A stretch of 64,000 nt of DNA from a virus. Its lineage: Duplodnaviria; Caudoviricetes. This document shows positions 1 through 2,384 of the stretch, in pieces. The stretch's first letter is position 1, and every line of letters begins with the position of its first letter. The notes beneath the pieces are model-generated. The model did not search any database. It was not told the DNA's origin and worked only from the letters and a program-made list of their open reading frames with translations. The position numbers and the translations under genes are program-made. The stretch is taken from IMG/VR virus record IMGVR_UViG_3300028048_000038, positions 32,001 to 96,000 of that record, one strand, 5' to 3'.

Positions 1-1118
1 TCTTGAATGTTCTTTGTATTAGCGTTCTCAATGAGGTTCTTAAGGTCTTGTGCGATGTCTTTTCCCTTGACAACTGCGGTAATACCACTTTCAATCAACT
101 TCATACAGAGTCCTACCAATGGTGCAGAAGTTCTACAGAGCACCATATCGTTCTCTCTAAAGAGCGATTTTGATAGTTCCTTGGTATGATATATCTCGCC
201 CTTAATTGCACCCTTATGAGCCTTTATTTGAGGTACGATTTCTTGTGCCATTGCTACCATATTCGTACCACACCTATAATTGACTGACAAAGGCAGTTCA
301 ATTGTATCATCTTGCATTGCTATTTTGTCAAAGGAATTGCAATCAGCACCAGCAAAGCCATTGATTGCTTGGTTTCTGTCACCAACTGCGATAAATCTAC
401 CATTCTTTGCAGCGCACAACATCAACTCTCTCTGTGCCCTATTAAGGTCTTGGCACTCGTCAATAAAGACGTATTTATAAGTTGGTATTGCTTCCTTGTG
501 GAACAATGGTAATACAATCATATCTGTATAATCAATCACCAAATCCCTTGGCATTTTATAGGCATCAGCAAGCAATATATTACATACTTCAACTTCGTCA
601 AATAATGTTATAAGGTTATGTTCATCACAAAGTTCTCTCAACTTGGATAAATCATTTTCACTATGCCGAATGAGATTAACCCTTGCAAGTGAATACAACT
701 TTGCCACATTGCAGCAGAATCCAAACACCTTGGCTGCGTCTGTATCTGGGGTAATGATTGATGATAACGAATATACATTCTGTTTCACATACTTATGATA
801 CTTCCAATCATCTACCTTAACAAACATCTTGTATTGGGGATGATTATAAAACTTCTTAAGAACGTGAAAGCCGAAAGCGTGTAATGTAGATACTTCTGCA
901 TAACCCTTTAATTTGGTCTTTAATTCCTCTACAATAAGTTTATTAAACGCAAGGAATATAACATTACGTTCTTTCTCTTTTAAACGTCTGCAAGCAGAAA
1001 CAATGGTTGTAGTTTTACCACTGCCAGCAACAGCATTAATGGCAATGTTCTCACTACCATTCTCTACTGCATCGAAAATGTCTAACTGATAATCTGAATA
1101 CTCTAATCTCTTTAGCAT
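1..1118 (-). CDS. UvrD/Rep-like superfamily 1 DNA helicase (3' end runs off the window; absent from ORF track)
   Basis: Manual translation from ATG at 1118 (MLKRLEYSDYQ...): Walker A AVAGSGKT, STLHAF, Walker B FIDECQD, VGDRNQAINGFAGA, LSVNYRC; no stop to base 1; promoter directly upstream. Confidence 0.92.
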   Translation of the reverse strand, partial: MLKRLEYSDYQLDIFDAVENGSENIAINAVAGSGKTTTIVSACRRLKEKERNVIFLAFNKLIVEELKTKLKGYAEVSTLHAFGFHVLKKFYNHPQYKMFVKVDDWKYHKYVKQNVYSLSSIITPDTDAAKVFGFCCNVAKLYSLARVNLIRHSENDLSKLRELCDEHNLITLFDEVEVCNILLADAYKMPRDLVIDYTDMIVLPLFHKEAIPTYKYVFIDECQDLNRAQRELMLCAAKNGRFIAVGDRNQAINGFAGADCNSFDKIAMQDDTIELPLSVNYRCGTNMVAMAQEIVPQIKAHKGAIKGEIYHTKELSKSLFRENDMVLCRTSAPLVGLCMKLIESGITAVVKGKDIAQDLKNLIENANTKNIQ

Positions 1119-1990: not shown

Positions 1991-2018
1991 GGGGAAGAAG
2001 CCGAATTGCTTCCTCCCC
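1991..2018 (-). terminator. intrinsic terminator ending the 2.0-2.3 kb non-coding transcript
   Basis: GGGGAGGAAGC/GCTTCTTCCCC stem followed by a U-rich tract on the minus strand. Confidence 0.75.
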
Positions 2019-2064
2019 TTACAACGACAAGAATCAGTAACAATTAAAAAGATTAGATTAATTG

Positions 2065-2177
2065 TTGAAGGAGCTGAATTTGAATCAGCGAAGCTTCCGA
2101 AGAAGCACACTAAGCACGAACTTAGTGCCCATTTGTCCACATCAGTCTTGCGACTGTTCTCCTCTGGTATCCTTCAA
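2065..2177 (-). ncRNA. tRNA-like structured RNA (acceptor-like stem and T-arm, three extra hairpins, no anticodon arm)
   Basis: TTGAAGGA/TCCTTCAA closing stem stacked on GCTGA-TTCAAAT-TCAGC; hairpins CAGTC-GCAA-GACTG, CACTAAG/CTTAGTG, GCTTC-TTCG-GAAGC. Confidence 0.75.
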
Positions 2178-2189
2178 ATATATCTTTGA

Positions 2190-2302
2190 AAAGTAAGGTG
2201 TTCTCCGCTGAGAAACTTTTTTATGGTGTTCTCGTCTTCTTCCTAATGCCCTCACATCTTGAACTATTCAGAGGGATTTGTTCTCCATTTAAACCTTGCT
2301 TT
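2190..2302 (-). ncRNA. structured RNA module with repeated GAGAACA motifs
   Basis: Closing stem AAAGCAAGGT/ACCTTACTTT; internal CCCTC/GAGGG stem; starts just after promoter 2325-2358; no credible ORF. Confidence 0.55.
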
Positions 2303-2384
2303 ATGTCTATCGTCTCATTGACAATGCAAAGATATATCTGATTTTCTTAAATTCCAAATTTTCTCATAACTTTTTAACAGTTTT

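Follow-up and report, generated by a model that had tools for sequence, protein, structure and literature searches.

The RNA gene at positions 2065 to 2176 on the minus strand of the window (by which we mean the whole 64,000-nt stretch of phage DNA that was analyzed) is a complete class-II cloverleaf that derives from tRNA-Tyr(GUA), carries an extra arm, and has no usable anticodon. The explanation toward which we lean, with less than even confidence, is that this mimic is a selected, non-decoding look-alike of the host tRNA-Tyr and serves as a dosage decoy for, or competitive inhibitor of, a defense nuclease directed at tRNA-Tyr. The source record is a complete phage genome of 409.5 kb with 35% GC, and promoters of the Bacteroidetes type are present across the whole record. 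Most of the sequencing runs that contain the phage come from bovine gut, and we infer that its host is a rumen member of the Bacteroidales. The genome has 46 tRNA calls (ARAGORN) and one tmRNA; its gene annotation covered mainly the part up to 186 kb, apart from the window's own genes. A tRNA with a CUA anticodon was noticed as well (L002:578-654, minus strand); coding density shows no TAG recoding, and stop-codon recoding was dropped for lack of support from this measure.

A tRNA-Tyr body with an extra arm in the D-loop

The RNA extends from U1 (2176) to A73 (2065); the next nucleotides are C-A-A, and CCA is not encoded. In the first-pass annotation, the stretch 2177 to 2065 had been described as a tRNA mimic consisting of an acceptor stem and a T-arm, with three tetraloop-type hairpins instead of D- and anticodon arms. 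The parts listed there are all present, namely, a closing stem of 7 bp (2176-2170 paired with 2072-2066), to which a U-1:A73 pair could add an eighth before 5' processing, U8-A9, hairpins with GCAA and cUUCGg loops, and a T-arm of 5 bp and 7 nt (2073-2089, with the loop UUCAAAU at 2084-2078). The term tRNA mimic is also supported, as the structure is conserved, no Rfam family matches, and the anticodon is unusable. The acceptor-plus-T anatomy, however, has to be replaced by a complete tRNA-Tyr body to which an arm has been added. A covarying 3-bp D-stem exists (CCA/UGG, 2167-2165 paired with 2131-2129), and the unpaired GG segment is G18G19 of the D-loop (2138-2137). The GCAA hairpin is part of a D-loop insert (2140-2161), which places 22 nt between G15 and U16 in the order GAGAA, C-G-closed GCAA-loop hairpin, and AUG. 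The middle hairpin corresponds to the anticodon arm (2108-2127), with 5+2 bp and a 6-nt UUCGUG loop (2120-2115) from which a canonical anticodon is absent, and the cUUCGg hairpin is a class-II variable arm of 5 bp (2093-2106), followed by UU-C48, a spacer of the tRNA-Tyr type. The folding energy of the mimic, -41.4 kcal/mol (z = -3.7), was equalled by none of 200 shuffled sequences.

When scored with the family model, the three copies in the genome reach 124 to 128 bits, and the next match is the phage's own tRNA-Tyr(GUA) at 58 bits, above every other tRNA; the best match in Bacteroides is tRNA-Tyr as well (57 bits). The Bacteroides tRNA-Tyr and the mimic share U8-A9, the CCA/UGG D-stem, the GAG-U-GG-NCAAA loop, and the UU-C48 spacer, and the D-arm, variable-arm spacer, and discriminator of the mimic follow the Bacteroides tRNA-Tyr almost letter for letter. 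In the family, the insert lies between G15 and U16 and consists of GAGAA(A), then a hairpin closed by C-G, then (A/G)UG, with near-constant flanks around 72 distinct hairpins of 12 to 25 nt in the parsed set. One locus (L069) contains an insert-bearing copy and then two insert-less ones, all with an identical odd anticodon loop, and another (L154) contains short-insert forms; the insertion point is therefore fixed, and intermediates are visible. The same point is supported by the alignment of host and phage tRNA-Tyr, and removal of the 22 nt gives back a normal Tyr-type D-loop. Other identities for the insert were considered: an SD-AUG micro-ORF was dropped, as AGG and ACG variants occur, and several candidates judged by eye (an RNase P or T-box double T-loop, a hairpin-ribozyme loop, a K-turn, and a tetraloop receptor) were abandoned after the tRNA-Tyr D-loop alignment.

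In 85 of the 128 members, including all three genome copies, the anticodon stem is 2 bp longer and carries a UUCGUG loop, with GUG and not GUA. GUA occupies positions 34 to 36 of a 7-nt loop in 29/128 members, 23 of which have G33, and a canonical YU-GUA-R loop was found in two mimics, both CU-GUA-AA; U33 is present in 43 of the 46 ordinary tRNA calls of the phage genome. Judged by these loops, most mimic copies cannot be ordinary decoding tRNAs. One could still suppose an unusual working decoder that has been reshaped against nucleases, given the 29 loops with GUA in place, the two CU-GUA-AA loops, and the fact that G33 would abolish the YGU motif required by colicin E5 (PMC1635277). However, the prevalence of the UUCGUG loop, a bulged base in the T-stem of 39 members, and the coexistence of canonical tRNA-Tyr genes with the mimics make such a decoder highly improbable. 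At the site of the T-stem bulge, one further member (L064:4806-4956, minus strand) has an insertion of about 35 nt with two hairpins. We also noticed that a canonical tRNA-His(GUG) is absent from the genome-wide ARAGORN list, while GUG is present in the loop of most mimics; this is probably a coincidence, because C73, a His identity element, is absent from the mimics.

Even when the insert is deleted in silico, the RNA has no valid anticodon, and this weighs against the idea of a pre-tRNA whose D-loop intron is spliced out to give a working tRNA. The normal Tyr-type D-loop that results from the 22-nt deletion, the conserved flanks, the presence of RtcB and a second RNA ligase in the phage, and the existence of tRNA introns in Lak phages (PMC6784885) would agree with splicing. 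On the other hand, G33 in 23 of the 29 seven-nucleotide GUA loops adds to the lack of a valid anticodon in the spliced form, EndA was not found in six genomes, no bulge-helix-bulge was seen, and the Lak Tyr intron has 93 nt and lies in the anticodon loop. Unspliced relatives of the mimic with 88 to 95% likeness are present in contigs from two rumen RNA studies; these contigs, which show no ends, strand, or level, retain the insert and have no visible skipping joint, a weak argument in the same direction. Overall, an intron seems very improbable to us.

The window copy is one of three mimic genes in the 409-kb phage, the other two being tandem paralogues in the tRNA cluster (141366-141603) that start directly after tRNA-Met. 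Around these paralogues, the phage tmRNA was observed about 700 nt upstream (L002:6323-6781, minus strand; Rfam, 53 bits) and a long, GC-elevated non-coding stretch immediately 3' (L002:4700-5360, minus strand), the start of which is kept in L005, L006, L022, and L195. When viral, metagenome, and genome collections were scanned with a pattern, 157 copies were parsed, of which 131 are distinct, at 88 loci; many of these loci come from repeated assembly of similar samples, and the number of independent phages is therefore smaller than that of loci. Each of four complete genomes (G000 to G003) has 3 copies, and tandem arrays of up to 5 copies occur in some loci.

The structure is conserved in related phages, and all stems covary. 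Across 63 aligned, diverse members, pairing in the cloverleaf reaches 99.2%, compared with 34 to 45% in slid controls, and 21 of the 25 pairs change on both sides, with 396 two-sided changes in the mimic alignment. The parser imposed a near-complete acceptor stem, U8, A14, G15, G19, C48, and the T-loop tail, which are not independent findings, and the search pattern set G19 and C56, so that the 19-56 pair is not independent evidence; no constraint was placed on A73, the 1:72 pair, the bases combined at 18/55, or the anticodon loop. Among the free positions, A73 was found in 131/131 mimics, U1:A72 in 127/131, and G-U in the anticodon loop in 127/128, and the elbow pair is G18.U55 in 31 and A18.G55 in 100 of the 131 distinct members, with mixed combinations in none. 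The coupled switching of the 18/55 pair, which amounts to about 15 changes when placed on a rough tree, indicates that selection acts on the L-shaped elbow. Decayed or selfishly amplified pseudogenes might be suggested by the tandem arrays and the many near-identical cores; we give this idea next to no credence, as it is already contradicted by covariation, both in the stems and at the elbow.

When Rfam 15 was searched, a check put forward in the first-pass annotation, no family matched at the gathering score, and nothing credible covered the element at E values of up to 10 either. The mimic was undetected by ARAGORN with default settings, and BLAST against 50,697 GenBank phages, including Lak and crAss, gave no homologue. 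A family-model search of 121 Bacteroidales genomes found none among the 30 candidates scored per genome, which is a weak negative, and a looser pattern revealed no distant clade. Matches in three bacterial MAGs, on contigs rich in Bacteroidetes-type promoters, are taken as mis-binned phage DNA. No paper on the family was found in the literature searched, which covered few subscription papers, and we rate the mimics as an undescribed family with respect to this literature and Rfam.

Transcription unit and antisense trailer

A promoter of the Bacteroidetes sigmaA type (2327-2358, minus strand; TTTG-N20-TATCTTTG) has TTTG at -33, a 20-nt spacer, and TATCTTTG at -7 and is kept in relatives; the call relies on the Bacteroidetes sigmaA consensus. 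It is without the TTCG found before the -7 box of early-gene promoters, and its -7/start region is common to two tRNA-cluster promoters. At the opposite end, a terminator-like hairpin of 11 bp (1991-2018, minus strand) varies in stem sequence but keeps its pairing in relatives. The unit had been credited with its own promoter and terminator, and both signals are present; the promoter, however, lies about 150 nt upstream of the mimic, and a separate conserved element is located between them. This 5' non-coding element (2190-2302, minus strand) is closed by a terminal stem and contains GAGAAC at 2285, 2233, and 2205, the hexamer that also opens the D-loop insert. It is 80 to 95% identical in about 17 related loci, with its interior replaced in G001 and G003, and its fold alone is not significant (z = -0.25). 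Short contigs of its relatives are present at high depth in two RNA runs, which cannot rank expression. In an RNA run with a near-identical phage, there was zero coverage over positions 1957 to 2130. Contig ends at 2114 were considered as cleavage sites and rejected, since graph branching among paralogues explains them. Directly 5' of many mimic copies, a small hairpin with the loop GGACAA...AAAA, which repeats GUGGACAA of the D-loop, was noticed, in L195, L198, and L199 and in 32 of 135 upstream contexts.

Recurrence of these motifs bears on the possibility that the mimic is a stable tRNA scaffold which shows a protein-binding motif (GGAGAAC ... RUG) and acts as a sponge or a Y-RNA-like tether. 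This would account for near-invariant insert flanks around a hairpin that is free to vary, for the three GAGAAC copies in the upstream element, and for the hairpin with GUGGACAA before 32/135 copies, and the genome encodes RtcB and, beside TyrRS, a DUF2828/DUF7788 protein, for which no PDB or TROVE match was found by sequence. A resemblance to a RegB site was also considered and was rejected, as no RegB homologue was found in support, the control of this search being silent. Also against a scaffold are the loss of the upstream GAGAAC repeats in G003, the persistence of insert-less and short-insert siblings in L069 and L154, and the lack of a YrlA match and of a terminal Ro-binding helix. The retained Tyr identity would moreover be left unexplained. 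We regard a scaffold as decidedly unlikely.

The 3' trailer (2033-2060, minus strand) is antisense to the consensus 5' leader of early genes and is a candidate small antisense RNA; the anti-leader RNA previously proposed just downstream of the mimic is thus confirmed as an antisense match at 2060 to 2038. A duplex of -14 kcal/mol or lower is predicted with 16 of 62 early start regions versus 4 of 499 others, and trailer shuffles (n = 300) gave a mean of 0.43 and a maximum of 5. The trailer core is kept before the terminator in 33 related loci. The target leader is common to at least 16 early genes, and early promoters are located at about 26 to 56 kb of the genome. From this predicted pairing, the trailer may be a single shut-off RNA for the early genes, and it is credible that it is an antisense RNA in its own right, separable from the mimic. 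Covariation between trailer and leader is not visible: one clade lost the 5' half of the trailer, and no corresponding change is seen in the leaders.

It had further been suggested that the mimic is a processing signal which releases this anti-leader RNA. In its strong form, the mimic would be mainly a processing cassette, with tRNA maturation freeing a 3' RNA that silences early genes. Such a cassette would fit the specificity of the trailer for early leaders and its retention before the terminator, and the window trailer is predicted to fold back on the 3' end of the mimic until processing. However, the trailer lies directly 3' of the mimic in 16 of 133 distinct downstream contexts, both paralogues of the phage genome are without it, and another tRNA-like gene stands between mimic and trailer in several orthologous loci, and a processing role is therefore at most secondary. 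Since any tRNA would do for this purpose, the insert and the Tyr features would have no explanation, and we consider the cassette improbable. A second degenerate tRNA-like gene with a variable anticodon arm is present in the mimic-trailer gap of L197 (about 510-590, plus strand), L198, and L199; none is present in the window.

Tyrosine-related genes and the decoy reading

Among the phage proteins is a full-length TyrRS with intact HLGH and KFGKS motifs, to which PDB entry 6n0w is the nearest by sequence; genes for a CCA-adding enzyme, for RtcB, and for a second RNA ligase are present as well. TyrRS was found in each of the four complete genomes and also in two that are partial. It is the sole synthetase found among the families searched; four other families were not found in six genomes, and the Phe, Ala, Arg, and Cys synthetases were outside the search. 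The phage decoding tRNA-Tyr genes have U1:A72 or C1:G72, as opposed to the bacterial G1:C72. The decoding tRNA-Tyr of G002 and G003, the only one found there, combines a remodelled D-arm with C1:G72, and the mimics retain the host-type core. An exception is G004, a record that is 64% complete and yielded no TyrRS; here, the tRNA-Tyr and the mimic share G1:C72. Phage TyrRS genes and tRNA-Tyr genes bearing C1:G72 or U1:A72 were also noticed in L174 (9042-10334, minus strand), L173 (15552-15728, minus strand), L190, and L191, and from its sequence such a TyrRS with its tRNA-Tyr is a candidate natural orthogonal pair. Separately, NAD and RNA-repair genes are clustered in L171, L172, and L174 (NAPRTase, NAD synthase, NADAR, NUDIX, RNA ligase, RtcB, CCA enzyme, DUF2828, TelA, IF3, and sigma70-like), and a weak Rpp14/Pop5 match (E = 3e-5) was seen among their ORFs.

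A tyrosine-specific alternative is that the mimic is dedicated to the phage TyrRS, as its substrate or its partner, either tyrosylated as an off-ribosome aminoacyl donor or adaptor or serving to titrate the enzyme. Staphylococci have a non-proteinogenic tRNA-Gly, a parallel for off-ribosome use. The intact TyrRS motifs and the near-universal A73 and loop G-U, neither of which was imposed by the search, are consistent with such a role, as is the way in which the 1:72 pair of the mimic tracks the tRNA-Tyr of its genome, being G:C in G004 (64% complete, TyrRS not found) and U:A where the enzyme was found. TyrRS determinants include A73 and the loop G-U; Tyr identity is specified by A73, U35, and the long arm, with G1-C72 in bacteria (PMC9976931). 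On the other hand, L/F-transferase, CDPS, and FemAB were not found in six genomes, the longer stem and GUG for GUA in 85/128 members are at odds with a TyrRS substrate, and the presence of TyrRS is already accounted for by the C1:G72 or U1:A72 of the phage decoding tRNAs. We hold this role to be unlikely; together with the scaffold, it is nonetheless one of the two main rivals, which are compatible with a decoy and not exclusive of it.

A decoy for tRNA-binding or tRNA-cleaving defense proteins had been suggested in the first-pass annotation; the version that we favor is narrowed to tRNA-Tyr and is conceivable as follows. Normal tRNA maturation enzymes would excise the mimic from its precursors, and CCA would be added, while the extra arm and altered loop would keep it off the ribosome. 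It would then occupy, or be consumed by, a host nuclease that recognizes the tRNA-Tyr body, the candidates being the PtuAB of Septu or retrons, cutting at the variable arm, or an anticodon nuclease. The phage's working tRNA-Tyr, altered at 1:72 and served by the phage TyrRS, would thereby be spared. A decoy fits because the mimic is host-shaped, non-decoding, and multi-copy and because tRNA-Tyr is a target of defense nucleases. In addition, the mimics co-occur with the phage TyrRS, CCA enzyme, and RtcB, and PtuA-PtuB pairs were found in Bacteroidales at 3/3 loci checked. In Septu and retron-Eco7, PtuAB cleaves tRNA-Tyr within its variable arm, and amplification of tRNA-Tyr lets T6 escape, an effect for which the authors allow "decoy or supplement" (PMC13096335). 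Against a decoy, an anticodon change in the SP15 tRNA-Tyr abolished rescue from retron-Eco7, and thus a non-decoding copy gave no protection in that system (PMC11555353); furthermore, not every PtuAB cuts tRNA, with Eco4 cleaving ssDNA (PMC12640716). The near-invariant GAGAA/RUG insert flanks are not predicted by a decoy model, and U1:A72 of the mimic follows the phage and not the host tRNA-Tyr, which points to TyrRS recognition.

It is possible, although doubtful, that these components form a tyrosine counter-defense module, in which a private TyrRS and a tRNA-Tyr reshaped at 1:72 are combined with several anticodon-less mimics that the D-loop arm turns into dedicated RNA inhibitors of a tRNA-cutting immune nuclease, one copy being co-transcribed with an antisense RNA for the simultaneous shut-off of many early genes. 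If so, this would be an RNA anti-defense factor acting by tRNA mimicry alone. It is known that phage tRNAs can rescue infection by taking the place of host tRNAs that have been cut, and in the literature searched we found no account of a nuclease decoy that is a natural, non-decoding tRNA mimic. The family is large, its ancestry is traceable via insert-less intermediates, its parent isotype is a known target of Septu and retron-Eco7, and TyrRS is encoded alongside; hence, the decoy question and the role of T4-type RNAs can be tested with short synthetic RNAs. The mimics also represent a class of genes missed by tRNA scanners and Rfam, and they show the D-loop to be a natural site that tolerates an extra arm.

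Comparison with known RNAs

The closest known relative is the Bacteroidales class-II tRNA-Tyr(GUA) (RF00005), with which the mimic shares a 7/5 acceptor-T branch, a 3-bp D-stem, an unpaired 13.22, the GG-NCAAA D-loop, a long variable arm followed by UU-C48, and A73. It differs from this tRNA in its D-loop arm of at least 22 nt, 5-bp variable stem, U1:A72, and mostly A18.G55, as well as in the nearly constant loss of U33 and the UUCGUG loop in two-thirds of members; with its 22-nt insert, the window mimic is also outside the D-loop length of 8 to 12 nt of decoding tRNAs. In contrast to tmRNA, the mimic is without the G3.U70 alanine identity, as 3:70 is G:C, A:U, or U:A in 129/131 mimics, and a separate phage tmRNA exists. 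Allo-tRNA and selC* (PMC7609411) are likewise non-canonical long-arm tRNAs missed by standard scans; they have an 8/4, 9/3, or 8-bp acceptor branch, whereas the mimic has a 7/5 branch, A73, and a D-loop arm. The intron-containing tRNA-Tyr of Lak megaphages (PMC6784885) is another oversized tRNA-Tyr-like gene of a Bacteroidales megaphage, but its insert follows position 36 in a different body, and the mimic has no sequence match to Lak genomes.

Y RNA (YrlA, RF02553) is similarly a tRNA-shaped non-coding RNA with an added module, and RtcB and a DUF2828 protein are present in the phage genome; unlike Y RNA, the mimic is not circularly permuted, has an open acceptor end, and gives no RF02553 match. 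The species 1 and 2 RNAs of phage T4 (rnaC and rnaD, 120 to 140 nt) resemble the mimics as non-decoding RNAs that end like tRNAs and lie within a phage tRNA cluster. However, they are single copies without a Tyr scaffold and show no homology to the mimics, scoring 13.6 bits (T-arm part only) and about 2 bits, respectively, compared with 100 to 130 bits for mimics. Finally, the tRNA-Tyr genes by which T5, SP15, and T6 counter Septu or retron-Eco7 (PMC11555353, PMC13096335) share with the mimics a tRNA-Tyr body, a strong promoter-type signal, and raised gene dosage; these tRNAs are canonical decoders that need their anticodon, whereas the mimic is non-decoding in most copies.
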